The notes below the pieces were generated by a model. The model worked only from the letters and a program-made list of their open reading frames with translations, had not been told where the DNA came from and searched no databases. Below are positions 9,600 to 64,000 of a stretch of DNA of 64,000 bases, piece by piece (position 1 is the first letter of the stretch; each line of letters begins with the position of its first letter). The DNA comes from Amphiscolops sp. MND2022 (taxonomy: Eukaryota), in NCBI GenBank assembly GCA_964187785.1, contig OZ076416.1:55800001-55864000 (forward strand). The letters are read 5' to 3'. The position numbers and the translations under genes were made by a program.

Positions 9600-9612
9600 T
9601 GGTGACAGGAGT
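9600..9612 (+). promoter_or_regulatory. Primer-binding site TGGTGACAGGAGT (tRNA-Leu-like)
   Basis: TGG start directly after the LTR CA. One mismatch to the recalled complement of eukaryotic tRNA-Leu(CAG) 3' ends (TGGTGTCAGGAGT). The same TGGTGACAGGAG follows the element 2 LTR. Confidence 0.75.
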
Positions 9613-10779
9613 TCCAACAACCAGCCAACTACCGAACCCACCACGCCAATCCACCTCACAATACCCTCAGTCATCCGCTCAGCAGTTCGACGACATTGTC
9701 ACTGAAATCCACCACCTGAGGGACACGATGACGGACACGGTGCAACATCCAAAAATTTTGCACACACAAGTCCCACTATTCCGCGGAAACCGAGAAAAGT
9801 ACAACGAGTTTGAGCACCTGCTGCTCAACCACCTCAGGCCACACCAACACAAATTGTCAGAATAACAGAAACTGACATACTTCCAGAGCCTGTTACGCGA
9901 CGATGCCATTGAATTTTGGCAATCGCTGAAAATAACGAACCAGACAATACTGGCCCAAGTACTGCGTTACTTCAAGAAGGAATACGCAAAAGAAGATTTG
10001 AAGGAAGTGGCCAAATACAAATTCGACCAGATGCGCTACGACCCTTCAGCAGAGACCTTCAATGACTTCCTCAACAAGTTCAAAAAAGTCGCAAAGCAGG
10101 CATTTGGGGGACAAGTCCAGCGATATTACAGAGACGTTTCTATTTGCGAAACTCCCCGTTCAAATGCAAAACGATTTGGCCATGGCAGGCAAACATGATG
10201 CATCGATGGAGGAGATCAGGACATTTGTGCAGCGCAGATGTCAATATGCGCAGCTCATTCCTAATACAACCAGTGCGCAACCATTCAATCAGATAAGCGC
10301 ACCCCAGCCGAATGTAGCCACACCTCAGACATCAAACGTCCAAACCCAACAACCCAGGGATGCAAAACGAAAATTTGATGGCCAATGTCGCCACTGCGGA
10401 ATACATGGCCACAAGTGGGTTGAGTGCAGGAAACGCCTCCGGGAGGAAGCACAAACCAAACCCCAGGGCCAAAACCAGCAACAACCAACCCAACCCGCCC
10501 AAACTCAAGAGATCAAGCCCAGATATAACCCCAAACTTGTGTGCCAAATTTGTGGCAAAGTGGGACACTCCGCCCGAGATTGCTACTACAGGAACACGGG
10601 GACGTCCGCCTACCGAAGCGTCCCGTCCCTAAGCAATCGACCGAGGAAAACCGACAATTTAGAAGGGACTTCAAACAGACCAACAGTAGAGTCTACAACG
10701 CCAATGAAATGTCCCACACTGCCAACGATGACATCGAAGATGCTGAGGAAACAGAACGACACGATGACGTAGAAGATCC

Positions 10780-10786
10780 AAAAAAC
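10780..10786 (+). promoter_or_regulatory. -1 ribosomal frameshift heptamer A AAA AAC at the gag/pol overlap
   Basis: gag reads CCA AAA AAC TTC TAA. The -1 frame is open from 10768 through to the pol ORF at 11074 (translated by hand). Confidence 0.75.
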
Positions 10787-13700
10787 TTCTAAAGCCACGT
10801 CATCCTCCTCAAACATACAAAAGTGCGCTACTAAACCAACACCAACAAACTACTCCTCTGACCCGACTACATACTGCAAACCACACGGGGTGGCAGTCCC
10901 GTCCTCCTACTTACACTAAGGAAACTACTAACTTCGTCATCACGAGACACTCAACTGACAACTACACCATTAAACCGAAGGAGACCAAACGAAGACCTGA
11001 AGCCCACAACATCCAACACCCGATTTCAGATCGCACACTGCCTGACCAACCGAATGATGAGAAACGAACCACTATGTCAAAACCAGGAAACCAAAAGAAG
11101 AAACCGAAGTACGAAATACGCCAGTTGAGTGCCACCCTGCAACTCCACAAAAAGGACAAGATGTTATACGTACCACTTCAATTCCGCGAATATGAAAACT
11201 TCGGACTACTTGACACGGGAGCAATCCAAAGTGCTCTCTCAGAAGCGGAACTCCGCCGCATCCTCACAGCACACCCAGCCGCCCTCCTCCAGGAACTCCC
11301 TGCTCCGGAGTTCAAAGTCCAAATCGCCAATGGAAACATCGTTCCAGTGAGGAAACAAGTCCTACTACGATTCTTCATCGGGGGAAAAATCTTCGAAGAG
11401 ACATTCATGGTCCTCTCAACGATGGGGAATATACTCATTGGAATGTCATTCTTCAAAAAATACTCCGTTACCCTGGATTTAGCCAACAACATCGTCAAAT
11501 TCCCGGACATCACCCTCCAATTACGATCAGTCAACGGGAAATTCAAAAACAAACTACTCGAATTGAAGACAACTCAGAAGACTGTGATCAAACCCAATCA
11601 ACAAGTGTTCGTCCCGGTGGTGGTTGAACGCGACCTAGGCGACATCACTGGCACTGTCGAAGGACTACCAGCCTTTGAAAGACGCTCACATCTGTTGGTT
11701 TCTCCGGCTCTCAACGAGACCCAGGAGGGGCGGACTCATGTCCAGATCACAAACCCACTCGACTACCAAATTACCATCAATGTGGGTACACCAGTGGCAT
11801 CATTCAAAATAATGACACCGAAGCAAGCCAACAACCTCCAACCGATGACCAATCACCAACTAAACCTGATTTCCCAGTACCCAGATGATGCCGAAGCTGT
11901 CTTGAACCAAATCTTCCAGGATCCGACTACCAAATCAGATAGAAGATGGTACCCTACCCCTGAGACTTGTGACGACCCGTCAAAACTCAACAAGATTGAA
12001 AAACGAATCTATGACGAAATCGTCAAACTCAGGGCCGAGGAGAAACTAGATCCAACAGCAAGTGAAGAACAACGCCATGAATTTCTAGCAAATTTCCAGT
12101 GGGAACAATCAATACTGAGCCTTCACGAGAAACAGAAAATCGAGGCCCTATTGGTCAAGTACCATGATATATTCGCCAGACATAGACTGGACATAGGGAT
12201 CAACACCGAATTCAAGATAAAGTTGACTCCCAAACACGACGAACCAGTCTATGCTCAAAGCTTACCCACACCGACGAACCTGAAAGACGACTTACCGGTT
12301 GAATTGGCGTTGATGCAGGAGTACGGCATAATCACAACATTGCCGTACAGCAAGTACTCTTCACCTATCTTCGCCCAACGCAAACCAAATGGGAAGCTTA
12401 GAATCCTCGTAGACCTCAGACGGATCAATCACTTGCTGAAGAATGACTACAATCAGCACAACCATCCGGTGACGACGATGGCAGACGCAGCACAACACAT
12501 GGCAGGAAAGCGATATTTCTGCAAACTGGACTGTTCGCAAGCACACCATTGTTTGCAAATGGCAGATGAACAGTCAGACCAGTTACTCGCTTTCAACTTC
12601 GGAAGTAGGACGTTCGCCTACCTCAGACTAGCCCAAGGATTGAATCGATCACTATCAGCCTTCAACAGTACTGTTCGAGAGTACTTGGACCCCTTGGTCA
12701 AGGCCGACAAATGTGCCCAATACGTCGATGACATCGGCATTGCAGCCAACAATGTCGAAGAGCTTGTCGACAACATTGAGGCTGTGTTCATGAAAATCAA
12801 TCAAGCTGGCCTGAAACTGTCGATGGCCAAATGTGCTTTCGGACACCCTGAGATAGAATTCCTGGGACGTAGCATCACCTCCAAGGGAGTTGCCCCCATC
12901 TAAGAAAAAATTGACAAGTTTTTGAAAAACATCAAATTACCGACGTCTGTGAAATCTTTACAACGATACATTGGATTCGTCCAATTCTACCGCCAATACA
13001 TTCCATGCCTAGCAGAAAAACTTGTTCCACTCTACAAACTCCTACAGAAAGACGCCAAATTCGAACTAACGCAAGTCCACAAAGATGCCATGTTCGACAT
13101 CAATGAGAACATAGCAAACGCAGCCAAGATGTCCGTGCGACTACCACTTCCGGACAAACAGCTAGTGATCATGTGCGATGCTAGCGAGCATGCAGCTGGA
13201 TACGTTCTCTTGATCGAGGATTACACTGAGACGAATGACGGACCGACGAAGTCATACGCACCAGTAGCCTTTGGTTCACAAAGGTTTACTGAGGGCCAGA
13301 TGTCGCTCACGATTTTTGCAAAAGAGTTCCTGGCTATGCACTTCGCATTTGATGAGTTCGCTCATATCTTGTGGGGAGTGAAGAAACCGACAATCGTCAT
13401 GACTGACAACAAAGGCCTCACAAGATTCTTCCAGTCTAAACGAATACCTCCTAAACTGTGGAACTACTGCGACCAGGCCCTCCAATTCGGCTTTGTCCTG
13501 GCCCATGTACCTGGAGTCGAGAACCCAGCAGCTGACTACCTGTCCAGAATCGACATCCACCCAAAGGACAGGATCCACCTCAAGCTACACGACGAGATAC
13601 CAGTCTTCAAGGTTGAAATTGACTTGGCATCAAAAACACCCAAACAGGACGATGAGGAAGACGATTACATTCCAGACGCGACGTATGTGCCTGATGCTAC

Positions 13701-15723
13701 AACATCACCAAATCCAACGATGCAGTCACTCTTGGCGATGTTCCCTCAATGGTGTCACGAAGACGACGAACAGTACCGTAGACGCATTGATGACATCAAA
13801 ACCCAGGTGCAACCATTTGTAACGCCCTCTGACCCAGCACTGTTCTTCACCCGATTTTGCCAACGGAACCAGGTTCACGCGGTAAATCAGGTATGCCCTT
13901 CGGGGACTTCAGAAATTGTTAAGGCTCAAGGCGAAAACAGTGACGTTCAACGTGTAATTAGGATCCTTACTGTCCAAGAAACTCCTCCGAACCAAGTGAA
14001 CTTTACAAGTACCTTTTTCCAAAAACTCTTTAAGAACCGTAAAAGACTTGAAGTAGTGAACAACGCGTTGTACAGGCAGTTTTTGGACAACGTAGGAAAC
14101 TTAGCTTACCGACAAATTGTAGTTCCTCCAGAAACTACGGAAGCCATATTCAGGACGATGCATGGCGACCCCATGCAGGGACACCCTGGCGCTTCCAAAA
14201 TGTTAGGTGAACTAAGGAAAAGGTACTACATCCCGAACTTAGCTGAAAAGGTCCAAAACTTTGTAAACAACTGCAAAGACTGTATTAAAGCTAAACCTGT
14301 GAAACCTAACACCGTGAAACCACCGCTTGAACCGATATACGACCCTTGCAATGGTCCTGAAGACGTCCTGGAAATTGATCTCGTAGGTGAGTTACCGCGA
14401 TCTAATGGGTACTCACACATTCTGACGGCCTGCGATTACTTTTCACGATATCTGTTTGCCATTCCAATCCGTAAACCTGACGCAAAATCTGTCGTCGAGG
14501 CTCTGCTAGACATTTTCACAAAACACGCATATGTGCCAAAACACATCATCACTGACAAAAGATCTGCCTTCACCTCACAAGTAATAACTGAACTGATGGA
14601 AAAGGCTGGGATAAAAGTTTCCCACGCGACAATCAAACATGCCCAAACTATTGGGATGATCGAAAGGTCGCATCAACGTTTGAAACAGATTCTGAAAATA
14701 AACGTATCTGCCGACCGCCCTCAGTGGGACCGATACGTCAACCTCTCTGTGATGGCGCACAATACGACCTACCACCAAACTCTGAAATGTTCACCGACTG
14801 AAGTCTTCCACGGCCGCGTGCCATACAACGCACTAGACTTTAAATTTGGCAACCCTCTTAGTCCCCCGAGGAATGCCACTGATACACAGTCGTTAGTGGA
14901 CAACCTGAACACCAAATTCAAAGAAACTCACACCAATATCATCCGAGCCTTTCACAAGTACAAAGCGTACTATGACCGAAAGGCACAAGCATCACCATTA
15001 AAAGTAAACGACTTTGTTTTTTTACTGAATCCTAAAATCAGCACACAATCAGAAAAAATCCCTTTCAACTCTTTCAAATGGGAAGGACCTTACAAGGTAG
15101 TTAAGGTCTTGACACAATCGAATTATGTCATCCGAAAAATCGGTACCTTCAAGACGCAGTGCGTACATAGAATGCGGCTCCGCCCATTTGTACCTCACGA
15201 CAAAATTGAAGACGTGACGGATGACGTAAACCGACATTACAGTGATCCTGACGCAATTGACGATCAGTCAATATTCAACGATAATCTGCCTGCAATCGAA
15301 CGATCACCGCCAGCTGAAAACACATTTAAACTCGACACAAACGAAACTGAAGCAATCGCTTCCGAGCACGGAACAATTTATTACGAACACAAACGGGTTC
15401 ACGAGGTCCCACCTCTGTCTAACTCGCTTCGTGAAGCCATCCGCACCGAAAATACGTACCAAAATAGAACTGAAATTCAATCCGACGAACCACCTACATC
15501 GCTGCCTAATCATGAGTCTAAACAACAAATTCCGACACATAATGATGCGGAGTCAACCACATCATCTGCCGAAACACCTACACCGATAACACGCAACAAC
15601 ATTACTCGATACAGCCTTCGTGAGGCACCTGTGCCTAAAACGTTCGACAACTTCCTCGTTCACGAACTGCAAGCAAAGCCCGCCCTTTTAAACTTCATGC
15701 AACGCAAATCTGAAAGCCAATAG
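10780..15723 (+). pseudogene. pol: pol polyprotein (PR, RT, RNase H, IN) with one in-frame stop at 12901-12903
   Basis: PR LLDTGAIQS; RT FAYLRLAQGL and YVDD; RH CDAS, TDNK, ADYLSR; IN HGDPMQGH...CKDC, IDL, TDK, ERSH and GPY. ORFs 11074-12903 and 12922-15723 share a frame. Confidence 0.95.
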
Positions 15724-17319
15724 AAAATACATGCAATCATTACAATGTAGTCTATATCACCACATGCAGCAATCATACCATTGAATTATCCTATTTATTT
15801 TACACCATTCAGTGACGACTGATACTCACTGTCCTACATACTCAAGTTTACCGGCAGAGTAAAATGTTACTCTCTACCGAGACAGCTGAGCGCTAAAGTA
15901 AATACATGAAATGCAGTCACATACACCACATCACTCCAACCGGAAATTGTTAAGTACATGTAAAGCACGTACAAACGACCTACTAATTTATGCAATTCAC
16001 GAAAAATCCCAACCACACACTTTCAAAGGAAATGCTCGGCAATTTTGCACCCACCAATCCTAAATCAGCTAAACTAAACTGTTTTCAAACACGTCTCAGT
16101 CCATAGTTGAGTACAAAAAAGAAAACGCCGACTCGTTTAAGTTACGTCAATAGAACCTAGTCTCACACTTCCGCTCCAGAAAGCCATGATGTGGTTTGAC
16201 TGTGTGGGTGCGTCGTCAAAAGCGCGTCTGTGTGGTTGTACAAACATTCAGATGAAGCTTGCTCTTTAGCAAGTGGATTCGGTGTTAGTTTTGAAAGGGT
16301 TTTTGCGACGGCAAATAACCTTCCAAATGAACTGAAAGCAAAGCGAAACTTCTTAAGGACAGTAACATGCAGTCGTCACGCCAACTTCACCCGACAATTA
16401 AGTCGTGACACCCTCGTTCTTACTGGTGATTCGTAGGCCTCGCCTCGCGTCAGAAAGAACAAGGTACTTAAAGCACATGTAGTCACTATCACCACAAACC
16501 CGAAAATTCGAAACAAGGGATGGATCAGACCACCCCTTGTAAAAGAGAAAAAAAATCTGTTTAATGGACATGGGGAAACCCATCTTCCATTAAATTGACG
16601 TTAACATTTGACACACGTCACGAGTGATGACGTCTCATGACACACATCAGTGATGACGACGTCAGAACTAACGCTCAATTTTACGAGCATAACAACACAT
16701 ATAAAGCAAAAAAAAATGATTGGCACCTTAGAATGACACTTATGCGTGTAAACACCCGTTAAAACACACGCACTTAGAGTATATATAGCATGCAAAGCAT
16801 CTAATTCGATCATTGGGAAGGAGCGGTGCAGCTCCGTTCATTCACCTTGGTGTAACCACAGGGCGTCAATACCACTTTCCGAGACCTGTGGGTAAACCTC
16901 CGTGAATGAAATTCTGTCTAAATTGGTGGCTACGCAAGTAACCACCATACAATCTCACTGAAACAAAAAACAACTCTACTCAGCTTCCTGACAAATTGAC
17001 ACCAGCTAACGAAGCCCCCATGTAAAAAATTTGTATAACGTAAGCAACATGTAAATTAACCACCTGCTCACGCGTGAAATCAAAGCTGAGCCAAGAAATC
17101 AATCAGCACTACTAAAAGTAAGTAAACAACGCATGTAAAGTCTACATATAAACCATCAAGCATCTAGAGCGAGGAATACACAAACACCAAATAGTAACAG
17201 CAAAAGGCACGTCAACATGCCAAGAACAAATATCCCAACTTCAAACGTTTAATAATAAAAACAAAAAACAAATGCAAAATAATTGACTCAATCACGAAAT
17301 GTTCTCTATCCAGTTTCTT

Positions 17320-20300
17320 CTAATCTTGCTCATCCGATGAGTATAGTGCACAACGGCTTTGCCGTTTCTTTCCACTCACAACCACTTCATTAGCCGAGTC
17401 ATTATCGGAGCCACCAACGGTTGCTAACTGCAAGAACTTCTTGCCCCGAGGTTTTCCACCAGTCCGGCGCCCGCTAGACTGACGACTAGTAGACGGCCCT
17501 TCGCGAACTGCGCTCTTCACACTTTTCCGAATTGACGTCCTGCTTCGCTGCAACGACCGAATAGGGGTAGATCCACTTGCTGGCAACGTAACGTCTTCTT
17601 GTCGCCGAAAAACTTTCTTAACTGAGGTACCACGCTTAAGAACCGGGCTGCTACGCCTTCCGGGACGGGGAGGACTCAGCACTTCCACAAGATCAAGTTG
17701 CGCCAATACGTTCGACCGGTAATCATCTATCCGCACCGTGGTAGGGAGTGACAGTTCATTGGACAAAGTAGCATTACCACGTGCCAAGGCTTCCCCTAAC
17801 CCAGATTTCATCAGCTGATCACATGGTCTACTTCGGGCCTCATCGGATAATCGAGAGACCTGCATATCACTCGTCTCGCACACTCGTAGCAATCCAGTTA
17901 GAGTTTGACGCGTATGTCCCGCATAAGACTTGGCAAGCCAACTCCGAACAAAATGTAAACTGGAACGTAGGGTATCTACCGGCATCGCAACGTCCACATC
18001 ATCAACAAAATCTAGCTCATAAGTCCCAACTGCATTCAGTCCAAACAGAATGTTGACCACGGTCAACAACTCTTGACATCGCGACCAGTAAGGATAAGAG
18101 AACCACATAGTTACCACGTCGTCAACTACCGGTACATTTTCTGTCAACGTCCACTTCTTCTTGAAGACTTGTGTCACTTCCCGATATTGTCGTAGTACAG
18201 CAGTAACATCTTCATCATCAAGGAGTTGATATCTCGACAGAGTAGCAAACGTGCCAACCAGAGCATCGATACACCGATCGTCAGATCCTCTGTGAATCAA
18301 CTCTGGATCAAATGGGGTCATACTAAAGTGACTAATAGCACCCTGCTCCCATGCTCCTGTTACTTCCCGACAAACAACGCCCAACAATTTCTGAACCGAT
18401 CTATAAAAGAACGGCAACTGGGTTCGTACGTCGTATCGGAAATATTGCCCGAAGTGCAGTTTGTAAAGGCCCTCGTCCACTGTCACGTACTCGCAGTCTA
18501 CCGGTGTCAGCAGGGCTCTCACTTCAACTTCCGCAGGGATCACTGAAGGCGGATACACGAAACACATAAGTTTTCGGACGAATTGTGACAGCTCGCGCTC
18601 TGCTAACATGTTACTGTCTCTGCCACTTCTGCACAAACGCGGACAAGTCTCGACTACTGCAAACACAAAACAAAACACATGAATCAGCGTTCATACCCTC
18701 TTTTTTCCGACTTAGGATTACTTCACCAAAAAAGTCATATTGAAAAACGCGCCTATGTCTAGCCACTTACTACATCACACCAAATTCAAAACCCCAACAA
18801 AAAAAACAAAAAAAATCGAAACGTGTGACAACTAACGCAAATCCAGAATGAGTCGTAACACAGCAAACCGGGGGCGCATCATTGCATCGTCGAAAACTTG
18901 CACCTCAAGCGGAGTAACCAGACGCAGCTCAGAAGTCACGTTAGGCCTGTGAGTGCCAAAGTACACAGCTAGATCATTCCAGTGCTCAACGACTTCAGTA
19001 CACAATGAGGCCAACACAACCACATCACTCCCTCCAAAGCGAATGAACTGCAAAACAAAACACAGCTGAAAGTTTGACATCATCTACTTACTGTCATAGC
19101 CTACGCACCTAACGTTTCAATTTACCAAAAACAATAAAATATATCCGCGTATATATTAACAAACCAATGTCCTATACATAACCACATCATAAACGATAAT
19201 GCCAAGTACTTACTCGTCTAAGTTTCGGCAATCGATCCATGAAACCCTCCTGCACTACAGCGGCTAAACGAACACGCAAGTAGTCCAACACGTTGAGTGG
19301 GTCGAGACCGCCAAATTCCGCTAGGAATTGCTTCCTCACGAGATCCAACAACCATATTTGGGTCACTCGACCGACAACCAAGGGATCAGTGATTCCAATT
19401 GCTGCTGCTAGAGCATGTCCAATTCGGGTCTCAGACTCAGTGCTATACATCTTGATATTTGAGGCATGTTGCAAACTGAGTAACACTGGTACTACATTGG
19501 CAATCATACTCGTCTCCCACCCAGCTCCGGCGGCCACTACGCCAAAAACCACAGTCTTGATCGCACAGTCTCCGACCACATGACACTCACAGATCCAATC
19601 AGAGTTCTGTCTTCTCAAGCTCACACCAACGTTCTTACCACGGGATAGCAGACAGTCCAACTGTTCGACGACGAACCGGTACAGTCCGTACAACACCAAA
19701 CTCTGTAAACACAGCCAATCACACAAATGAGGAGCTCACCTTCACATCATAGATTAACACAAAAACAACTGTACCCATATCAACGCGTTAAGAAACCCCC
19801 CCTTTGACAACCAAAGCCCGCAAACACGCATTCAGTACTAAAGCCCAAAAACAGCAAATGTATACACGTACCTGACATCGGGCATAAGTCAAGGAGCGAC
19901 ACTCGACACGTAGCTGAGCACTCATACCATCTCGCCATGACTCCACCATCCTCATCACAGAACCGAACGAAGCAACATTGCAAAAGCTGCTTATGAATTG
20001 GCCTAACCACAGGTAAGCCGCACTCTCTGTAGGCAATGTTGGTCTTTCACCAGCAGACGCTTCGGCCTCTTCAATCGCGACCCTCTCATCCACGGACAAA
20101 CTCAACTCGGACTCCAGATACACTGGAGGCTCTGTCATCCTCTCTTGGCGAATTCGTCTATCCTCCTCTGCGGTTACTGGGCGGCAAGCTTTATCAAGTA
20201 GTGGCATTTGCATTATTATGCGATACTTTTGCTCAAGGCGCGTATGTCCTACGCCTCGCCAATGTTCCCACAACGAAGACAAGCCACGCCCAGCAATGCT

Positions 20301-21781
20301 GAGATCTACTTTACAGAGGAGACATCTAGCGTAGCCATCCACCACTCGTTTGTGTCGGGGGAAGCCCACGAAAGTCCCGACCACGCCTGAGACAAAGTAT
20401 GAAGGCTTCAACGTCTTCACTTTCCTCACTCGCGCTGAAATAATCGACACACTCACACGCAAACCAGCAACCCAAAATAGTGCTAGCAACGACTCCTAAC
20501 CCCCCGTTAACTTCAAAAAAAAATGTGTGTAGTCTCCTATATGCCTTGAGTTTGGGAACTGTTACTAAAACCCCTCCCATGATCTTTTGAGATTCTTTAC
20601 CAGGTTTTGATGAGGTAGCAGCTCCTCCACCCGTCGACACCAACGACCGCACTCCTCCGAACGCAGTTGGCACATCGGACAACTGACTTGGACTGAAGGA
20701 CGCTGCACTACTAACGGCCACAGGACTGATCGACTCTTCCAACTGAACGGGAGGCACAGCTGGTACGACCTGATCCGCCCCGCTCCCAGAAGTCGTTGCA
20801 ACCCCCGCAAATTGGTCCATAGCCGCCTTTAACTTCTGCACACAGTCTTCGATTGCCAGCACACCAGCAGGACCCAACTCTCCGAACTTCGCATCTATTA
20901 CTGCTTTGATTGTCTCTGACAATTCTTTCGTCATTCGTGCCAGCGAAGACTCCATTTCATCCCTTGTCACGGGCACGCCAGCAGAAGTTCCTACAACACA
21001 AATCAGTTTTTCCGCCATATGACGTGTGTCACACGACATGCGGACCACAGCCGACCCAAACACCGAACCAAGACTAGCAGTATACTCGATATGATGTATG
21101 ACAACCGACCACTTACCCAATTCACCAGCAAGGACGGAACTGAAGCGATCTTCCACAGCAGTTATTTTGGGTGAACCACCCGCGGCATCACCTCGTTTCG
21201 AAGCCAGCAGTGAGCGGAGTAACTTTACGACGTCTACAAGCGATAACTCTTCTGAAGCACAATAATGTCTCATTAGCCACCTCATCAGTTACCCAGAGCA
21301 TTAGATCCCGGGAAGTACACACGCCTCAATGCTAGTACCGCTCAAACGACATACTGGCTTACAATAATTCAGAATGCTCTGAAGGAAAGATAACCTTTAT
21401 CGGTTATTATTTCGAAAAAACTACTTGTGACCCACGACTACGGAAGTCACTGTCCTACAAAACTACCTGAGCGCTAATTACACACAGCGAAGGGCAAAAA
21501 GAAAAGAAATAGTGAGACTACTCACGGAATTCACTCGATAGCGCAATCTCCAACAACGTGTTAGCTGCCTCATTGTTGGAAGCAGTCACCTTGCCCGCAA
21601 AGCGACAACACGTTCCAAAACGCTCTCCTGACAGGGCTTCCTCGACAGCAGCCGGCAATTCACTACCTATCGAAGAGAAACTGAACTGCTCCAGCTCAGT
21701 GAGCACTCCTTCTGCTGCCAACACAACTGCAGCTACTTCTGCATCAGCCTGGGACGGCCCTTCCTGCGCCGGTGAACTCAT
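17320..21781 (-). CDS. Six-exon antisense cargo gene, predicted 1168 aa: coiled-coil N-terminus, C2H2/BED-like zinc finger, degenerate hAT-transposase-like body, basic low-complexity tail
   Basis: Exons 21781-21526, 21251-20601, 20434-19872, 19702-19214, 19047-18837 and 18656-17320 total 3507 nt. All five GT-AG introns (274, 166, 169, 166, 180 bp) join ORF-track frames in phase. Zinc finger CLLC-x16-H-x5-H at about 20324-20244. Confidence 0.8.
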
Positions 21782-22473
21782 GACAGTAATAACAAGCAAG
21801 TCTGAAAAGTAATCAACTTGAGGCTAATGAACTGAAAGCACACAGTCGTTTGCGATTTACTAAGGTTCAAAGTAACTTCCAATGATGATGTGGACTGATC
21901 ACCCACATTGTCTATGCAAAGTAACTACCCAAAAAATCCAAAGGGATAACCTAATTCCTGAATATCACCAACCACACTACTCCAAAAAGGGCCAAAGCCT
22001 ACCCGAAAAATCCTCCAAAATCACAATACGACTCCCTGGCTTATCCTAATTATAGCCCACTTGATCATTGATACAATCACTCAGAAGGCCGCGGCCGAAC
22101 TGAATTGCCGAAGAATCGCACAAAAGAATATACTGGAGAAATTTTTGCTTCTCGTATTTGGCATCGACGAAGAATTGTTTACAGATCGCACGATGTTCCA
22201 CTACAACCACTTCCGAACGATTACCGGATGAGCCGAGTAATTATATGACGCTGCCACGTTAGATTAATTTCCGGCAAATTCATTCTTATTTTAACTCTCT
22301 TACTGCAAACAATGCGCACGATTGGATGACGTGGCTACTCTCGCCACATTGACTCTATATTTACTCTTTACCGAAGTGGAACAGCCAATGCGTGACCAAC
22401 ATTTTCTTCGCTCACTCGCCATATCGAGCCGAAGCGACAATCTACTCGAATATTTTCAATCACGAAATCAATT

Positions 22474-55139: not shown

Positions 55140-56230
55140 ATCGATGAAAAGCAAATTTTGACTTCTCATTTAACATTCGTATTGAATGAGTGCATTAATG
55201 AAAGTGTTTTTCCTACATTGTTAAAGAGAGCGACTATAACCCCCATTTTCGAAAAGATGACATTCTAGATCTCAAACATTATCGTCCCATTTTGATTACA
55301 ACTACGTTCTCCAAAATACTTGAAAAATGTATTCATAGGCAAATTACAGCTTACATTGAAGAAAAAAATCTCGCTCCATTCCAATTCGGTTTCAGGAAAA
55401 AGTATCAGTAGAAGATGCTGCTTTGTTTTTTACCGGATAGGTTCAACAGGAAATTCAGGATGGAAAAATATGTTCATGCAGTCTTGCTGGATTTATCAAA
55501 AGCTTTTGACTCACTTTCACATGGAATCCTTTTGTCTAAACTCAAGTCTCTTAGTTTCTCGTCTTCGGTCATCAGCTTTAAAAAAAGTTTCCTCATTGAT
55601 AGACTACAGCAGGTTTCATTGAATGGTGTCAAACCGGATTGGATCGAACTGAAGCAAAGCGCTTCCCAGGGCACAAATCTAGGACCACTGCTCTTCAACC
55701 TATATGTTAATGACCTGACTGGACAGATAACGGAGGATGCTCGTATCATCCAGTACGCCGATGATTGTTTGCTTTTTTGTAGTCACCAAGACCCTGACAT
55801 TGCTTTGCAATGTTTGCAAACAATTTTTTTGAAACTTGAAAGATACTTTAAGTCCCATCGACTAAATTTGAATGACAGCAAAACAGAATTCTTAACATTT
55901 TCTCGTAAAAGTGACAAGAGGCAAGTAGACTCCGAAACAGTTGTCGTGTGCTCCTCAGTTGTCAAAAAGAAATGTGAATGTAAATATCTTGGAATAACGT
56001 TAGATCAACACTTGACTTTCTAAACCCAGGTAGGAAAGGTGCTAAAAACATGGCAGTTGGAATAAAAACTACTGAATCTATACAACACAACTTTCCGACC
56101 ACAGTCTTGTTCATGCTTTTCCACGCGCTAATAATCAGTCATCTCGAATACTCTGCGATTTTTTTCACTCAAATATCTCCTCCTTCACTACTTCACCTTG
56201 AGAAACAGATGAACTAGGCATTAAAATCTG
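55140..56230 (+). pseudogene. CR1/L2-like LINE reverse transcriptase fragment
   Basis: FP.LLKRA.ITPIFEK, YRPI, QFGFRK, LDLSKAFD, QG.NLGPLLFNLYVND, QYADD, LNLN.SKTE, KYLG.TLD. Confidence 0.9.
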
Positions 56231-56917: not shown

Positions 56918-57069
56918 AGGAAATGGGGACATATCCGATGCACGCTTTATACTTTTCTAGAAATATGACCCGAGGAATTCTATCTGCGGCAATTCGACTT
57001 GTTTCCAGTCATAACTCTTATTTTCAGAGTCCTATTTTGTCACTTCTCTCAAGACGATTCCTCAGAAGA

Positions 57070-57352
57070 TGTCGAGCGGTAGTCTAAGATGCTTGGGACG
57101 CAATCCACTTTTGGTTAAGAAAACTAAACTGTTCTTTATCTGTATTATTCGTTCTTATGATTATAAAATTACTTTTCTCAGTTGGTGAAGTATTCAATAA
57201 ATGTCAAATAGTTTCAAATGTCAAAGTCAAATTGTTTCAACTTGTATGTTTATATTTATATAAAAGGTCATTGGTAGGCATTCAAGATATTCCTTCTCAA
57301 TTTTGATGTTTTCTGTTTTCGGTCAAAGAAGATCATCATGGAACACATGACA
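57070..57352 (-). repeat. Putative 3' LTR of element 3 (283 bp)
   Basis: Minus strand TGTCATG...CTCGACA with a TATA-like TATATAAATATAAA, directly after a purine tract. The partner LTR is outside the window. Confidence 0.65.
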
Positions 57353-57364
57353 CTTCCTCCCATC
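57353..57364 (-). promoter_or_regulatory. Polypurine tract GATGGGAGGAAG
   Basis: Plus strand cttcctcccatc abuts catgaca, so on the minus strand the purine run directly precedes TGTCATG. Confidence 0.7.
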
Positions 57365-57683
57365 AAGCTTTTCCGGCCCCCAAAAGAAACCATCATTCGG
57401 CTGGAGAAAGAGTCAGGTCGTATGAAATACAGAATCCAAAGTTGAGTATGCCAATGTTTTGCATTGAATCCAAAATAAAATAAGAGGAAAAGAGGGGCAG
57501 CACAAGATCCAAAGTTGTCCAGAGTGAAGAATCCAGTTGTTGTTTGTCTTCGGTGATATTGTTTTGAATCCTTTGGTGTTTATTAGCCAGATTACTGCTT
57601 TATAAATTTACATATACTGCAAGAGAAATATAAAAGCAAAGTGTTTTATGAGATGATAGATTTCATAAATTCAGTTCGTGAAG

Positions 57684-60041
57684 TCAATCAATAATTGGAT
57701 GAAAGCTCACGTTCGGGGGGATTTGATTAGGAGCGACAAGAGGTTTGCCGCCAGTAAGCTGGCTGCGCACATTATCAATCATGCTACTGCTGAGTTGTGT
57801 ATTTCCATCAGTGAAATTACCTATGACGGAATCAGCCATGAAAGAGGTGGATGGTTGTTGCAAATGAATCATTTTATTTTTGGAAGGGACTCGAAAATTG
57901 AAGCGGTGTCCCAGTTTTTTCTCAAGGTCAGGCAAGGCCGCTTTATGTTCGTCTGGAACATCGAGACGTGGTTTTACATTGAATTTGTTTTTGATCAGTT
58001 TTTTGGGAAACAGTCTGTCAGCTAGATGATACTTGTGATAGATGTACATGAATAGTAAATGCAGTATTGTCGAAACAATAAAAACGACGATAGTTAGAGT
58101 GAAAGAAACTTTAAAGGGGACATATTGATTAAATTCGCGGGTGAGCGAGGGTTTCAAAAGTTTCATATCACTCGCTAGAGGACGGGCTATGTCCACTAAT
58201 CGGTTGACTTCACGAACTCTTGGACTATGTACGAGTTCTTTACGTACTTGTTTCAAAAGCTTCACTCCTGCTTCTGCTTTCGAGTCATATAAGGGTAAAT
58301 CCTCTAAAGGGGGAACTTCCATGATTAAGGATGCTAGAGGGTTTGGCAATGAAACTTGCAGTTTTATTGCGGGTATATGAGAACAACTTGATAAGTCGGA
58401 CCTGATTTTTATGTGTTTTGTCATGATTTGCATGCCACATTCAAGAGTGATAATACAGATACGACAGCCTGCAAATGATTGTGTTTTCGATGAAGCGGCT
58501 GTTGCATGAGATTCGCGGAATATGAAATCATCATTGGCAGATGTTTTTAGCCAGATACCAAAACCTAAGTTAGTGGCTTGTTCAGTAGATGGTAAAGAAA
58601 CTAAGGAAGTATCACAAACGGAAAGTGCATCAACAGAGGAATCAAAGAAGAGCGTCGCTATGCATGAAGAGTGACCCATTTCGGTCGGAAAAGTTTCTGC
58701 GCATATGCGATATTTTGAAGAGCCGAGGCATTGTTCGAATTGTGCTTCGGATAGGACTGACGATTCCATTTGGTCTTCTGAAATGGCTAAATACGGTGCC
58801 TCAATATCCCACTTGAGAGCCAATTGAGGGTCATCAGGGTAAGGCATCGGAATTAGTTTAGCCTCAAATAGTGTGAAAACGGTTTGTCGAGAAGCCAACG
58901 GTATACTAAGGGTCATCAAGATTCCTTCTGGCACTGTAACGGCATCCGCGAGCAAACGAGAATCATAGTATGAAAGGAGGTCGGTCATCGGAATAGCTAA
59001 CGATAGGCGATCGGTTGCCTTGCTTTGGTCAATCGCTACTCGTTCCAAGATCACGAGGAGTGATTCCATCGGAATAAGCGACATTGGTAGATGACCTCGC
59101 AAAATAACAGGAATAGAGTTAAGAAAGTTCATGCGAAAAGCATATAAAGCTGAGCGAAAGGCTTTGATGCTAGCATGAACCATACTAAGGAGCGAAGATA
59201 AAGTATCAAAATTGAAATTCAACTGTTGGTTAGAGAATAACATTTGATTACAGTCGCGTAAAATATGAAAGTTATTTTCGAACACGTCAAATTGTTCTTG
59301 TATGATGGCCCAATTGCGGTTTTGAGTTTCGGACATTTCAGCTTGTATCGCATGAAGAGCTGCGAGCTCGTTTTTCACTAGGAAGAATTTTTCGTCAGTG
59401 TTCAGTTGAAACTCTGTGACAAATTGTGTCAGAACATCTTGATAATCTGAAAGGCTCCGTATGTTGGCAGCATTGGCTTGGGCTTGATCGTGACAGCCCC
59501 CAAAAATTCCTTGAAGACCACAAGAGTCGGAACTTCTCATAGCGATACCACCTCCAAAAAGTCCAACAGCTGCCAGAGCAGCGAGGCCTACACCAGCGCC
59601 TCGTCGTTTACGTGGTTGTTGTTCAGAAGGTGGACGTAAAAACATTGAGGTTTCATTTCGGATAGTATTTAGGTCGTTTTCCGATTCGTGAAGCTCATGA
59701 TTGATTTGAAAGAGCATCCAATTGACGTTGAATCCGGAAGAATTTGATGAAAAGTGACTAGAGAAATTCAGGGGACAAAAAATAGAGGGCAAGTCCCACA
59801 TTTGTGAAAGGCGGTGAATCAGTTGTTCGATATCTGGTTTCAATGAAAATTCATACGTGGGAAAAGGAACAAGGAATTCCACACTGATAAATTTTTCTGT
59901 AAGCAAGATTTTATTGCGCTCGTTAAATAGTATCCCTTTTTCTAGAAGATCATTAGGGTTATTAGAGGCTTCAATGTTAGATGACCATTGGCTAGAAACG
60001 GAAGCAGGAGTGAAAGCAAGGTAGGCAAGAAAGAACAGCAT
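57684..60041 (-). CDS. env: Envelope glycoprotein, class I fusion protein of the F type (baculovirus F / errantivirus env-like), 785 aa, intact
   Basis: Signal peptide MLFFLAYLAFTPASVSS; furin site RKRR then hydrophobic fusion peptide GAGVGLAALAAVGLFGGGIA; heptad-rich region; Cys-rich segment LSIPL...PYLAIS...C..C..SC; TM FTLTIVVFIVSTILHLLFMYIY; sequons NFS, NSS, NET. Confidence 0.9.
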   Translation of the reverse strand: MLFFLAYLAFTPASVSSQWSSNIEASNNPNDLLEKGILFNERNKILLTEKFISVEFLVPFPTYEFSLKPDIEQLIHRLSQMWDLPSIFCPLNFSSHFSSNSSGFNVNWMLFQINHELHESENDLNTIRNETSMFLRPPSEQQPRKRRGAGVGLAALAAVGLFGGGIAMRSSDSCGLQGIFGGCHDQAQANAANIRSLSDYQDVLTQFVTEFQLNTDEKFFLVKNELAALHAIQAEMSETQNRNWAIIQEQFDVFENNFHILRDCNQMLFSNQQLNFNFDTLSSLLSMVHASIKAFRSALYAFRMNFLNSIPVILRGHLPMSLIPMESLLVILERVAIDQSKATDRLSLAIPMTDLLSYYDSRLLADAVTVPEGILMTLSIPLASRQTVFTLFEAKLIPMPYPDDPQLALKWDIEAPYLAISEDQMESSVLSEAQFEQCLGSSKYRICAETFPTEMGHSSCIATLFFDSSVDALSVCDTSLVSLPSTEQATNLGFGIWLKTSANDDFIFRESHATAASSKTQSFAGCRICIITLECGMQIMTKHIKIRSDLSSCSHIPAIKLQVSLPNPLASLIMEVPPLEDLPLYDSKAEAGVKLLKQVRKELVHSPRVREVNRLVDIARPLASDMKLLKPSLTREFNQYVPFKVSFTLTIVVFIVSTILHLLFMYIYHKYHLADRLFPKKLIKNKFNVKPRLDVPDEHKAALPDLEKKLGHRFNFRVPSKNKMIHLQQPSTSFMADSVIGNFTDGNTQLSSSMIDNVRSQLTGGKPLVAPNQIPPNVSFHPIID

Positions 60042-60076
60042 GATTGCTCAGTTATGGTTCAAACCAGAAAATGAGC

Positions 60077-60090
60077 CTGAAGATAGAGAT
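60077..60090 (-). promoter_or_regulatory. Putative env splice acceptor
   Basis: Minus strand atctctatcttcAG ends 36 nt upstream of the env ATG, as expected for a spliced subgenomic env mRNA. Confidence 0.5.
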
Positions 60091-60434
60091 GGCAAAATTG
60101 TTTTAGAACGTCAAATGTTTGTCGGTTTTTGTTTGGGTACGCCTGTTGGCATTTATCAATCGACCCACGGAAGAATTTGACAGAGTTCAGGCACCAAAGA
60201 AAATTATTGACTTTTCGCGATCTATTGAGAAAAATGATTGTTTGTCGGTCATGTGAAAGAATGTCACCAGAGTGTTATGCGAACAGTGACCGATGGAGGT
60301 CTTATTAGGGGCGTTGTAGAGAAAATGTCAACGAAAAATCATGTGTTAACAGAAAAAATTTGTCTGTCAGTTTTTTTTTGTTGTTTTTTTTTGAGAAAAA
60401 ATGCGAGGGAAACCTAGTATTTTCAGCTCAAAAA

Positions 60435-60737
60435 ATGTTGAAAATGTTCATTGTTGCTGCCGTGTGTGTTATGGCCTGTCTTCCATGCGAAGAAAAGCTG
60501 TGGCGAGGAAAAAGTATATGGTGCTGCCAAAACGGAACCAAATTAGAAGTTCAAGGAAAAGTTGTATGGAGCGCACGCATACCACCAATGTGTATAAAAA
60601 AGCAACTGATGGAAAAAAAAGAAGAAAGAGATACAGCAAAAATGGTTATCAAAACAGCATTATTCCTGTTGGGAAGTGTGATCGGATGTGTCTGCTGCGG
60701 TTGTTTGTGGCGAAAACGACGAAATCGACAAAATTGA
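60435..60737 (+). CDS. Small (100 aa) type I membrane protein, antisense accessory ORF of element 3
   Basis: aaaaATG start just after a ttttcag acceptor; hydrophobic N-terminus MLKMFIVAAVCVMACLP; TM TALFLLGSVIG; Cys cluster CVCCGC; polybasic tail RKRRNR. Confidence 0.55.
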   Translation: MLKMFIVAAVCVMACLPCEEKLWRGKSIWCCQNGTKLEVQGKVVWSARIPPMCIKKQLMEKKEERDTAKMVIKTALFLLGSVIGCVCCGCLWRKRRNRQN

Positions 60738-61023
60738 AAAAAAACTCCAGAGTGAAAAAAAAACAAGATTGCAGCTTAGCTAGCAGTGATGAAAGAACTG
60801 AAGTTAGATGATTTTTGTTAAAGTCCACAGTTAAATGTAGTTACCGAAGCAGCAATTTCAGTGTTGAACACTTGTTTTTTTTTTTTTTTGTAGAAAAGCT
60901 CAAAACTAGGAGAATGAAACTAACAGTAATAGCAAAAAGTTGCAGAAAGAAACGTATTGAATTGAGAGTACCATGGAGAAAATGAAAACGTAATCGAATA
61001 GGTAGTATTTGGATAAAAGTGAG

Positions 61024-61311
61024 TTATAGTTGTTCATACTGGTACTTGAGGGCTCTGCGGAGTCTGATTATTTTAATAATGCCTCGGAGACCATGCGAGC
61101 GAGGCATAGTAAAGTTTTCTGAATGAAGTAGCAGCGTGAATTCGATCCATCTGGGCGAACCATAAAGGAGGACAACTTCAGCTCCAGAGGCAAGTGTGAG
61201 GGTTACAGTAGAATCTTCTGCATAATGAACTCCTGTGACATTGTAGTCAAGGCCTGTCTTAAAACAGGTCCATTGGAACTGGATAGGGAATTGAAGTGTT
61301 AGGAGACCCAT
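61024..61311 (-). CDS. Unknown 95-aa ORF (MGLLTLQFP...; track ORF from 61398), same strand as env
   Basis: Open, compositionally diverse frame inside an otherwise AT-rich stretch; no recognised motif. Confidence 0.3.
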   Translation of the reverse strand: MGLLTLQFPIQFQWTCFKTGLDYNVTGVHYAEDSTVTLTLASGAEVVLLYGSPRWIEFTLLLHSENFTMPRSHGLRGIIKIIRLRRALKYQYEQL

Positions 61312-61516
61312 TTGCAGGAAGGAGAATTTGAAAGAACAAAAAGACGAAAATGATAAAACAAAGAAGCGATAAGTATTTGAAGCAAATGGCTGACTCAAAA
61401 TGAGTTAATTAAACAAAATGATGTGACAAAAGTTCAAACGCAAATAAACAGTGGAGTTAGTAAGTAAATATCAGAAAGGAAGCGAACGTTCGATAAAACT
61501 GAAAGAAAACATCAAA

Positions 61517-62885
61517 ATGCTTGGTATTGCGAGACTCAAACATGAACAAAACAAATATGTTTCAGAGCCAATGGAGCCTTTAATGTATGCAGCAATCATT
61601 AAGATGGTAAAAAGTGGAGAAGTAGATGAAATATTAACGGAAAAGGAGAAATTGACATGGAAAGCCCGTATTCTGGAATACAGTGTGCGTGCCGATGGGG
61701 GCCTTTTATGGAACGGGCTGAAAGTACCAACCCTGGAACAAATCGAACAGGTGTTACAGCCTGTACACTTCTCCGGTAAGAGGCATCTGAAGGACAAGAG
61801 AGTGCTACGAAAGAAATTAAGCGATCTTGGCTTTGTGCTACCCAAATATTTAGGTGGCTTAGAACGAGCCTGCACGCTGTAAGTACATTGTTATGAAGAA
61901 ATGTGCAAGAAATTATGGTGAATATCTCGAAAGCCGAAAACAATCGAAATATGGTGTTTGCTAATTTCAGCTTTCTACATAATTGTCCTGACTGTTTCTG
62001 GTCATTTCATCAGGGACATGCATGGCAACAAGTGGCATGTGTAAAGAAGGCTACGCGGCTGCGGCTATGCGAAAAATTGGGCTTTACCCACATAGGCATT
62101 CCAGATGATTACTGCGGGAGTAAAGTCGTGGGGCTGGGAGAACCAGCCGAAAAAAATTGTAAAGCTATCTTAGCTACTGGAGGAGGGGAATGTTGGTTCT
62201 CCACCATATTTTATCTACTTGTGGGGAAAAAGAGTGGTAAGAATGAGTGATGTATGTAATATCAGCAGACATAAAAATGAAACACGAGAAAACTCTGTGT
62301 GTTTAGATAAAAAACGGAACGCCAGTGACTTAAAGAGGTTACGGAGTGCTATTGGGGAAACAATGAGAACCGAAGAATTTAATAAATTATGTGAACGAAA
62401 ACTGGGATATACAACTTCTGCATGGGAAATTGAGGCCATTAAGACTTCAAAACTGTCGGTTGGAGAACCGTGGGTAAGGAGACCATAAGTCCAGCGAAAA
62501 AATGACCAGAAAAATATTTCATGATGTTGTGTTTCAGATGTTGGGTACCGCTATGTACCTAAAAGTGGATTTGCTAGTGTTCTGGCAATACGAAAGTGGG
62601 CGTGGATGGATACGGTATTCTGCGGAAGAGACAGAGAGTTTCGGTCGCGAGACATATTTGATTCAATGTATGCATTCCGCTGTCTACAAGGCGTTCCATT
62701 GCGAGCCGTTATGTGAATGGCCAATTGAAGAGTTAGTATTGTTAAACTCGGAAGGTTGTAAACGTGCGAGAAGTGATATCGATGGTGTATTGCTAGGAAG
62801 GATAAGTGCTATAAGCGGCCATATGAACGTGGCGGTTGTGTGGCAAAAAATGCCCGTCCACGCTGGACGTAAGAAAAAACTCTGA
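61517..62885 (+). CDS. Four-exon antisense gene, predicted 380 aa: integrase-type H2C2 zinc-binding module plus OTU-like cysteine protease domain
   Basis: Exons 61517-61878, 61971-62236, 62307-62473 and 62538-62885 total 1143 nt. Introns of 92, 70 and 64 bp (GTAAGT/GTAAGA/GTAAGG ... AG) all preserve frame. Splicing completes H..H...CPDC. Candidate catalytic Cys in GGGECWFSTI (62191) and His in AFHCEPL (62697). Confidence 0.7.
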
Positions 62886-63354
62886 TGAGTAAAACTCATG
62901 TATCATAAAAAAAACGTCATCAATATCATCATTCATTGAAGACAATTGTCATGAAGAAATGAAGAATTCACTCAAAAGGTTTTGATTATCCTTGCAGGAA
63001 ACACAGAAAAGAGTAGGTGTAGTGCGAACCCAAAGGAATTAGAAAAAATAGTAAAAACATACTGTGAAACATGAAAATTACGCAGTTTCCCAAAATTTCA
63101 AAATGGCGGACTAAGACGCGGAAAAAAAATTTTTTGTTTCCGATTTGCAATGTGGCATCAAAATTCTAATCTACATAAAATTCTAAGGCTTCCACCCGTA
63201 CGGTTTGACGATCTGACAATTTGACCTTGAGAAATTGCGATTTAAAGGTCGCAGTTAGGTAGTCAATTTTGTTATTGCAAATGGAGAAGAAAAATTTGTT
63301 GTTTTTGCGGCAGAGCGGCGGCCAAACGATAGGGATAGGCAAGAGAAATGGTAA

Positions 63355-64000
63355 TTACGATCGAATAGGCTGAAAAATGACGATTTTAATGTTTGAGTTG
63401 AAAAAAATTTGATATAAGAGGGAGAAAACAGTTGGCCAATGGAGTTTATCATAGCCGTTACCAAGTCGTGGAAGGCCTATTTCTGTAATATTATGGCGCT
63501 CCATATGGCGCTTCATGGCGAGAAGGCTCATTTGAAGAGTATCATAGGAAGAGCGATGAAAAAATTTTCGTTTCGTGACTAAATTGTAGATGAATTTGTT
63601 TGTAGAATGATCATAACACGCAATCAAGGATCCCGGTGGGGGTCTCGTAAGAGTCACTTTGTGAAGATTTTGTACCGCTGGATAGCGTGGCGATACAGCA
63701 GCCGCCAAGCCTGTATAATTTGCCAAATCGGAGGAACCGCAATACGCAAAGGATGTATTTGTAGATAGAATATTTGATTGAGAAAAACAGAATTTTGGAT
63801 AGTTTGTGGACGCCACAATTGCATTTACATCATTATTTGACAATCGCTTTTTCAAATTCGTTAGCGAGTAGCGTGCTTTTACTTCCTTTTGTCGCCGAAG
63901 GTACTCAGGTGGCGTTTCAGATTGCCCTGAGTGCGTAGATGGTCTTGAACTATGGACCGGAGATGGCCCCGATGATTGCATCATAGTAGAGTGACTGGTT
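63355..64000 (-). CDS. TARG1/OARD1 (Poa1p-like) macrodomain at the end of a frame that stays open to the window edge (probably the pol C-terminus)
   Basis: AYCGSSDL..TGLA, FIYNLVTKRK, YDTLQMSL.AMK, I.LPRLGNGYDKLHW match the recalled TARG1 pattern, including the Lys (VTK) and Asp (GYD) dyad. No upstream stop between 63984 and 64000. Confidence 0.9.
   Translation of the reverse strand, partial: TSHSTMMQSSGPSPVHSSRPSTHSGQSETPPEYLRRQKEVKARYSLTNLKKRLSNNDVNAIVASTNYPKFCFSQSNILSTNTSFAYCGSSDLANYTGLAAAVSPRYPAVQNLHKVTLTRPPPGSLIACYDHSTNKFIYNLVTKRKFFHRSSYDTLQMSLLAMKRHMERHNITEIGLPRLGNGYDKLHWPTVFSLLYQIFFNSNIKIVIFQPIRS

Follow-up and report, generated by a model that had tools for sequence, protein, structure and literature searches.

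What would a retrotransposon gain from carrying, antisense to its own genes, enzymes that remove protein modifications, and why should two unrelated enzyme classes alternate in one place? These questions are raised by a 64,000-nucleotide stretch of DNA from Amphiscolops sp. MND2022 (GenBank assembly GCA_964187785.1, contig OZ076416.1, positions 55,800,001 to 55,864,000; hereafter the window), part of a 1.07-Gb genome. On its minus strand lies the 3′ half of a Ty3/Gypsy long terminal repeat (LTR) element with a total length of 14.5 kb. An initial annotation of this sequence proposed an env-bearing element with a set kit of virus-like accessory genes. We find that the kit is not fixed: an antisense slot between pol and env holds either a spliced gene for an H2C2 finger joined to an OTU-like protease or an intronless JmjC-like gene, and these alternatives recur in BEL/Pao elements. 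Little is known of the means by which animal retrotransposons withstand silencing by their hosts, and accessory genes are considered uncommon in invertebrate LTR elements.

A Predicted Spliced Antisense Gene Encodes an H2C2 Finger and an OTU-Like Protease

The pol and env genes are separated by a 3.3-kb cassette with antisense genes. The largest of these, the H2C2-OTU gene, lies on the plus strand, antisense to gag, pol and env, and is predicted to have five exons encoding 336 amino acids with no internal stop, separated by four GT-AG introns of 92, 70, 64 and 65 nt. Exon 1 (61571..61878) encodes two residues of an H2C2 finger of the integrase type, His66 and His72, which all 14 sequences compared share, and exon 2 (61971..62236) encodes the finger residues Cys108 and Cys111, which are likewise invariant, together with the OTU catalytic residue Cys177 in the motif GGGECW. 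This cysteine is present in 17 of 17 sequences, and one further copy has it changed. Exon 3 (62307..62473) specifies a helical part of the OTU region, with 95 genome matches and its splice sites kept, and exon 4 (62538..62731) specifies OTU His301 in FHCEP (15/16) and Glu303 (16/16). Exon 5 (62797..62872) ends with the stop codon and encodes a basic C-terminal tail that could act as a nuclear localization signal; in the distant group the limits of this exon are less secure. The finger runs directly into the OTU region within the 336 amino acids, with no rve match or DDE core, and a transposase identity was rejected for lack of the DDE residues. The spliced gene with an OTU-like Cys/His pair reported in the initial annotation is thus confirmed.

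The gene is maintained over large distances. Exon 2 gives 150 scored genome matches, with identities from 100% down to 36%. Among 21 aligned loci, the GT/AG positions of introns 1 and 3 are kept in all and those of intron 2 in 19; for intron 4 the donor is kept in 21 and the acceptor in 16. Thirteen of the 21 loci read without a stop as mapped. In six pairs, exon identity (0.53–0.75) is higher than intron identity (0.33–0.48). Nonsynonymous divergence (dN) between loci L001 and L020 is 0.125, compared with a synonymous divergence (dS) of 2.6; dS is saturated in 77 of 78 pairs, and the one usable pair has a dN/dS of 0.113.

Recognition of the two domains rests on several comparisons. At the N-terminus of the homologue P0002, 29 of 30 Atlas matches are Integrase_H2C2 (best score 0.95), and Pfam H2C2 gives no match to the exons of the gene. 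A YPYY-like pattern is clear, by eye, in the BEL/Pao version only. The exon-2 profile retrieves a Pfam-OTU protein (P0161, E 1.6e-5) from among 1.84 billion entries. Within a small local set, a profile of the whole gene matches (E 9e-9) an intronless family with a Pfam OTU assignment. A fold model was made from a diverged copy with two in-frame introns read through. In a VIA comparison of this model, rows 1–27 are all OTU-type proteases and unrelated rows have Z≤2.5; the best match is OTUD1 (Z 8.7, root mean square deviation 3.3, 127 residues aligned). Cellular OTUD1 and OTUD3 top this list, with viral OTUs within 1 Z. Among the Foldseek matches listed, all are likewise OTU proteins, with nairovirus OTUs first (E 1.4e-3). 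The model therefore supports the OTU fold assignment, and the spliced product is probably an H2C2 finger joined to a putatively catalytic OTU deubiquitinase. In a search of PDB sequences the exon-2 profile found no match and the exon-1 profile only one chance coiled-coil match. No annotated full-length spliced protein occurs among the homologues, and no relative was confirmed in the metagenome and viral contigs searched.

A JmjC-Like Gene Occupies the Same Slot in Close Relatives

Six close relatives of the element (env 70–87% identical) had no OTU exons. Their slot holds an intronless antisense JmjC-like open reading frame (ORF) of about 350 amino acids, with 120 genome matches. All 17 members compared have the same four residues, His162, Glu164, Lys179 and His238, which correspond to the Hx[D/E]...H iron triad and the 2-oxoglutarate lysine. 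The sole PDB match to a profile of this family is C. elegans KDM7 (E 0.065), with the triad residues aligned, and PDB searches with single family members gave nothing relevant; Atlas returns JmjC matches (0.95). Pfam assigns a second family in the same slot (L137) to JmjC (E 6e-7), and this family can be aligned with the first at a probability of 87.6%. The OTU and JmjC cargoes share no fold, and both end in basic tails.

A coordinate comparison of 93 env loci finds 68 with OTU cargo, 16 with JmjC cargo, none with both and nine with neither. These loci (95 rows minus two secondary pieces; 93 of 1,018 candidates scored) were compared with the best 99 of 150 exon-2 matches, two exon-3 matches and 37 of 120 JmjC matches. 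The nine loci with neither comprise two that keep OTU exon 4 only, two with the second JmjC family (one of them, L138, recognized by eye), one with a cupin-like antisense ORF, three that end before env and one tandem env array. The cupin-like ORF (L139:4841-5566) is without the JmjC iron ligands and without a Pfam match. Among fetched loci with env and either integrase or macrodomain, 36 carry OTU and 14 carry JmjC, none carries both and all 50 cargoes are antisense, a count that is not unbiased, the loci having been selected by the same queries. OTU and JmjC genes are alternatives in one antisense slot.

The initial annotation asked whether its four ORFs recur together in other copies with dN/dS below 1, and would have taken their absence from other copies as a sign of unrelated nested insertion. 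Purifying selection is observed, as described below, and the ORFs do not always occur together; such absence is in part seen, but it comes about by replacement and not by unrelated insertion.

Cassettes Are Exchanged and Occur in BEL/Pao Elements

Cassette and backbone have separate histories. Two copies (L001 and L018) differ by a dS of only 0.010 in the macrodomain and 0.125 in env, whereas synonymous divergence between their OTU genes is saturated and dN is 0.143. The OTU tree (13 rows) rejects two clades that have 100/99+ support in env (approximately unbiased test, p-AU 0.008 and 0.002), and a quick env tree, which leaves out L102, needs at least two changes of cargo. These phylogenetic comparisons indicate that the OTU gene moves between backbones.

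Both kinds of cargo are also found in BEL/Pao elements. An intronless H2C2-OTU gene lies antisense to integrase in all 11 fetched loci, and a JmjC-like gene is antisense in five (L096, L097, L107-L109). Three further JmjC loci (L105, L110, L111) have no element match within the fetched stretch, two of them near zinc-knuckle ORFs. No env was detected in the BEL/Pao cargo loci. Because BEL/Pao elements carry both cargo types, any benefit of the cargo would be independent of Env. The shared cargo also shows that genes have passed between Gypsy and BEL/Pao elements and probably DNA transposons. The BEL/Pao H2C2-OTU loci (L117-L120 and L127-L133; for example, G000:C3:92749102-92750082) have the canonical GDGNC motif and 124 genome matches.

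The window contains a second Gypsy-type element on the plus strand (9218-22000), with reverse transcriptase (RT), RNase H and integrase identified by Pfam. It has antisense ORFs at 17320-21288, apparently spliced and without a Pfam match, that constitute a third kind of antisense cargo. By eye they have what we take to be a BED-finger-like and hAT-like look. A 456-amino-acid frame of this element has 93 scored genome matches at 45–100% identity.

The Element, Its Pol-Borne Macrodomain and Its Env

The cassette belongs to one coherent Env-bearing Ty3/Gypsy element. Extension beyond position 64000 revealed pol and gag between two LTRs, the 5′ LTR lying 7.2 kb past the window end (G000:C8:55871156-55871501), and this bears out the element class proposed in the initial annotation. 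The 3′ LTR (57007..57352, minus strand) is 346 bp long and has one mismatch to the 5′ LTR; the initial annotation had it begin at 57070, and was right about its presence and that of the polypurine tract. This tract (57353..57364, minus strand) is a purine run abutting the LTR, at an identical position in 9/9 copies, and the primer binding site starts with TGG. A 5-bp target-site duplication (57002..57006), identical to the 5-mer ahead of the 5′ LTR, encloses the insertion, and such a duplication is present in nine of nine copies checked. The LTR termini are TG...CT instead of TG...CA in the nine copies. The four products named in the initial annotation, the polypurine tract and the LTR are present, far beyond chance. 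Because four other copies in the genome match the whole 7-kb query at 99%, the family moved recently.

Pfam gives the domain order in copy L014 as zf-CCHC (under cut-off), protease (weak), dUTPase-like (under cut-off), RVT_1, RT_RNaseH, Integrase_H2C2 and rve. The dUTPase-like segment between protease and RT (L014:4625-9997) scores 21.4 bits against a cut-off of 22. In the window copy pol is broken across three frames; other copies have single frames of more than 1,800 amino acids.

The 3′ end of pol (63355..64000, minus strand) shares its frame with integrase and runs past 64000 through it. The last 147 residues of this frame, encoded by 63358-63798, are a TARG1-like macrodomain fused to the integrase tail, and a relative carries Pfam H2C2, rve and Macro in a single frame. 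The closest solved relative is human TARG1/C6orf130 (E 6e-18; E 3e-23 for the L055 macrodomain), and the Lys and Asp of the TARG1 dyad align in the window copy, which we take to be the catalytic dyad. The initial annotation was correct about the domain and its dyad; a free ORF was rejected, the domain sitting in the Pol frame. Its ADP-ribose-binding loop, AHC...MGAG in TARG1, reads AYC...NYTG in the window subfamily and AHC...M[R/K][K/R]G in other families. The median dN/dS of the macrodomain is 0.215 (55 of 153 pairs), compared with 0.053 for integrase.

The env gene (57684..60041, minus strand; ATG at 60041, stop at 57684) encodes a 785-amino-acid F-type class I fusion protein. Its features are a signal peptide, an RKRR site (residue 144) just ahead of a hydrophobic fusion peptide of Gly/Ala character, and a transmembrane (TM) helix near the C-terminus. 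An AF2 model (pLDDT 70) gives 173 Foldseek matches at E≤0.001, the best of them Hendra F (2e-6); among the matches listed, all are F proteins of paramyxoviruses or pneumoviruses. The intact fusion protein described in the initial annotation is thereby substantiated. Pfam Baculo_F matches four of 33 Env homologues, not the window Env, and an Env profile gives only weak HA2/spike heptad matches among PDB sequences (E≥0.027). Median dN/dS is 0.091 (34 unsaturated of 171 pairs).

Other Genes and Probable Splice Acceptors of the Cassette

A small membrane protein of 100 amino acids, as noted in the initial annotation, is encoded antisense to env at 60435..60737 (plus strand), with a signal peptide, a Cys-rich ectodomain, a TM segment, a Cys cluster and a basic tail. 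It is kept in 16 loci with dN/dS of 0.27–0.41 (three unsaturated of 120 pairs). A 95-amino-acid ORF in the sense orientation (61024..61311, minus strand), overlooked before, as was the antisense orientation of the OTU and TM genes, matches no Pfam family and is conserved in 12 loci, with a median dN/dS of 0.28 (eight of 66 pairs); the L018 subfamily is without it. Pfam places none of the window ORFs for env, macrodomain, OTU exons, TM gene and the 95-amino-acid protein in a family over the cut-off. The substitution patterns indicate that the extra ORFs are inherited parts of the element under purifying selection.

An acceptor-like motif lies at most 22 nt before the ATG of the OTU gene in 17 of 21 loci and of the TM gene in all 13 loci scored, leaving aside one TM locus in which no ATG was found; the figure for 4,021 background ATGs is 9%. 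Transcripts therefore probably reach both antisense genes by splicing, with a leader that lies upstream or is added in trans. Because the genomic RNA is sense, reverse transcription leaves the introns of antisense genes in place, as follows from LTR-element replication, and the element can therefore carry a spliced gene. Antisense placement would be a simple means for retroelements to carry such genes.

Relation to Known Systems

Each ingredient of the element has a precedent. ‘Ancient errantiviruses’ of the F type (Chary and Hayashi, eLife 2026, PMC13524379) are reported to be Ty3/Gypsy elements with gag, pol and env, a paramyxovirus-F-like Env, a furin site, a fusion peptide and multi-copy young insertions. 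In genes and env fold our element resembles them, with env after pol, the F fold, furin site, fusion peptide and TM helix; because it fits this group as described there, Env itself is not new. The difference is that Pol here ends in a macrodomain and that an antisense-gene cassette lies between pol and env. The main text of that report has no occurrence of ‘macro’, ‘OTU’, ‘antisense’ or ‘accessory’, and in its supplements ‘macro’ belongs to species names in the four of 10 places shown.

Ginger1 DNA transposases (Bao et al. 2010, PMC2836005) are described as having a YPYY/H2C2 N-terminus, a C-terminal OTU and 1–4 GT-AG introns. The H2C2-OTU gene is alike in its two ends and its introns, but it has no DDE core or GPY/F and is antisense cargo of LTR elements. 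No Ginger donor is found among the nine Pfam-OTU loci of the genome, and because of this we can only infer descent from Ginger. The plant Gypsy elements Grande, RIRE2 and Retand are reported to have conserved ORFs that lie antisense in the interval from pol to the 3′ LTR; some of the products are nuclear, and a regulatory role has been proposed (PMC7264820). As described, those ORFs are without clear homology or function, whereas the genes here have enzyme folds and introns, adjoin an F-type env and are exchangeable. Enzymatic third ORFs common to unrelated retroelement classes are known from bdelloid LTR elements (PMC5408684), and a functional AlkB 2-oxoglutarate demethylase is reported as fixed in an orchid Gypsy lineage as counter-defence (PMC9289625). 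Those genes encode DEDDy, GDSL and AlkB proteins, and the abstracts describe no alternation of OTU and JmjC in one slot. Macro-domain ORFs are reported in fish epsilon-like endogenous retroviruses (Basta et al. 2009, cited through the review PMC4977317); those are additional ORFs of Retroviridae, whereas the TARG1-type domain here is fused to a Gypsy integrase tail. In the literature searched, mostly titles and the beginnings of abstracts outside subscription papers and Repbase, we found no description of a macro-Pol fusion, of spliced antisense OTU or JmjC cargo in an LTR element, or of their alternation. The OTU/JmjC alternation and the arrangement as a whole therefore appear to be new.

Possible Function of the Cassette

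Our best reading, which seems to us as apt to be right as wrong, is that the cassette supplies exchangeable nuclear ‘eraser’ enzymes against host silencing. We prefer relief from silencing because both cargoes would remove post-translational marks and have basic tails, because one bears a nucleic-acid-binding finger, and because both are present in BEL/Pao loci without detected env. In this proposal, a recently active F-type Env-bearing Ty3/Gypsy family would use its pol-env spacer as an exchangeable accessory cassette. Antisense transcripts would be spliced into the TM gene and the main cargo gene at 3′ splice sites immediately ahead of the two start codons, and the main slot would express one nuclear eraser, either the H2C2-finger OTU deubiquitinase or the JmjC Fe/2-oxoglutarate oxygenase. 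The finger may give contact with DNA or chromatin, or self-association, as in integrases. Acting catalytically, to the element’s benefit, the cargo would most likely clear the elements’ own chromatin of repressive marks, whether ubiquitin or methyl, or of SUMO/ubiquitin signals carried by silencing factors. The Pol-borne macrodomain might read or remove ADP-ribose near the integration complex; ADP-ribosylation is reported to take part in L1 silencing (PMC4695847). Recombination of co-packaged relatives would exchange cassette versions. Two unrelated enzyme classes that alternate in one slot of many young families offer a natural comparison, and their substrates should name the marks by which the host silences the elements.

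Several observations weigh against this reading. The OTU model has no Foldseek match at E≤0.001, nairovirus OTUs head its list, and the spliced family is without any Pfam OTU match. Its Cys box is GGG[E/K]C instead of GDGNC, and the third triad residue is Glu instead of Asp/Asn; the related BEL/Pao family has the canonical GDGNC and passes Pfam OTU. The JmjC recognition score in Atlas is below its threshold, only two of 17 members match Pfam JmjC, and these weakly, and JmjC proteins act on RNA and non-histone proteins too. The TM protein, which is not nuclear, does not fit. The window-subfamily macrodomain has lost the His and Gly-Ala of the TARG1 ADP-ribose loop, and a distant OTU-bearing group (L059-L062) ends Pol without any macrodomain.

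More tentatively, and with some doubt on our part, the Gypsy and BEL/Pao LTR elements of this genome may draw on a common stock of anti-silencing genes, all of them antisense and some with introns. These would include an H2C2-OTU histone deubiquitinase, Ginger-like but without the DDE core, and histone demethylases of the JmjC class that the elements have captured, alternatives in one slot that are traded between backbones like the alleles of an arms race. If true, animal retrotransposons would here encode their own system of chromatin erasers, each directed at another host mark.

The RNA-virus-type counter-defence role put forward in the initial annotation is an unlikely alternative. The OTU and the macrodomain would reverse ubiquitin and ADP-ribose signals of innate antiviral immunity during cell-to-cell spread, and the TM protein would modulate the cell surface. 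An intact, constrained F-type Env, a protein with a signal peptide and TM segment, the nairovirus OTUs that lead in Foldseek (E 1.4e-3) and rapid exchange of cassette versions, which suits a conflict, would all agree with it. The VIA order, however, puts cellular OTUD1 and OTUD3 highest, with viral OTUs tied within 1 Z, and the protease, joined to a finger of the integrase type, is similar to the OTUs of transposons. A JmjC enzyme substitutes for it, the macrodomain belongs to Pol, and BEL/Pao loci without detected env carry both cargoes, all of which points away from immune antagonism.

Help with integration accounts best for a macrodomain fused to integrase, and we regard it as distinctly unlikely for the cassette. 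Macrodomain and OTU would either rid the integration gap of PARP and ubiquitin signals or shield Pol from degradation, as proposed for Ginger1 OTU/Ulp1; Ginger1 transposases join YPYY, H2C2, DDE and OTU, and a repair role has been proposed for them (PMC2836005). The H2C2 finger could also bind the element’s integrase. Such a role leaves unexplained the substitution of JmjC for OTU and any action at integration by an antisense product that is not packaged with Pol, and the cassette versions diverge far faster than integrase.

Self-regulation or exclusion seems to us very unlikely. Antisense products would damp or time the element’s own expression, as does the antisense product HBZ of HTLV-1; alternatively, superinfection exclusion or family competition would be the task of the TM protein and an H2C2-OTU with weak catalysis. 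Antisense genes led by splice acceptors, an altered OTU Cys box, strongly divergent cassette alleles on near-identical backbones, and DDE-less integrase N-termini that could be dominant-negative are all consistent with this idea. It is at odds with the near invariance of the catalytic Cys and His and of the JmjC iron ligands, as expected of active enzymes. Finally, unrelated nested insertions or neutral captured fragments, suggested by the two env loci with OTU exon 4 only and by the L018 subfamily without the 95-amino-acid ORF, are scarcely credible given an order and orientation fixed across diverged families, open frames and kept splice sites at saturated dS, and a single target-site duplication around everything; for the OTU gene, which has a fixed place across families, a nested origin was rejected on these grounds.

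Additional Observations

Two head-to-head gene pairs, env/TM (60041-60435) and the 95-amino-acid ORF/OTU (61311-61571), could have bidirectional internal promoters, and their order is retained in JmjC-bearing relatives. Alignment of diverged families reveals a conserved non-coding block (63099..63260) between the 3′ end of the antisense gene and the end of pol. This block contains a AAAATGGCGG motif, which is presumably YY1-like, an A/T tract and a short inverted repeat. In JmjC-bearing copies, tandem repeats of about 180 bp lie downstream of pol (L036:2300-3170). The cassette is tandemly duplicated in L025, and the tandem array of env occurs in L141, where it consists of env pieces. A decayed non-LTR reverse transcriptase fragment (55412-56023; RVT_1 E 2e-25) adjoins the insertion in the window.

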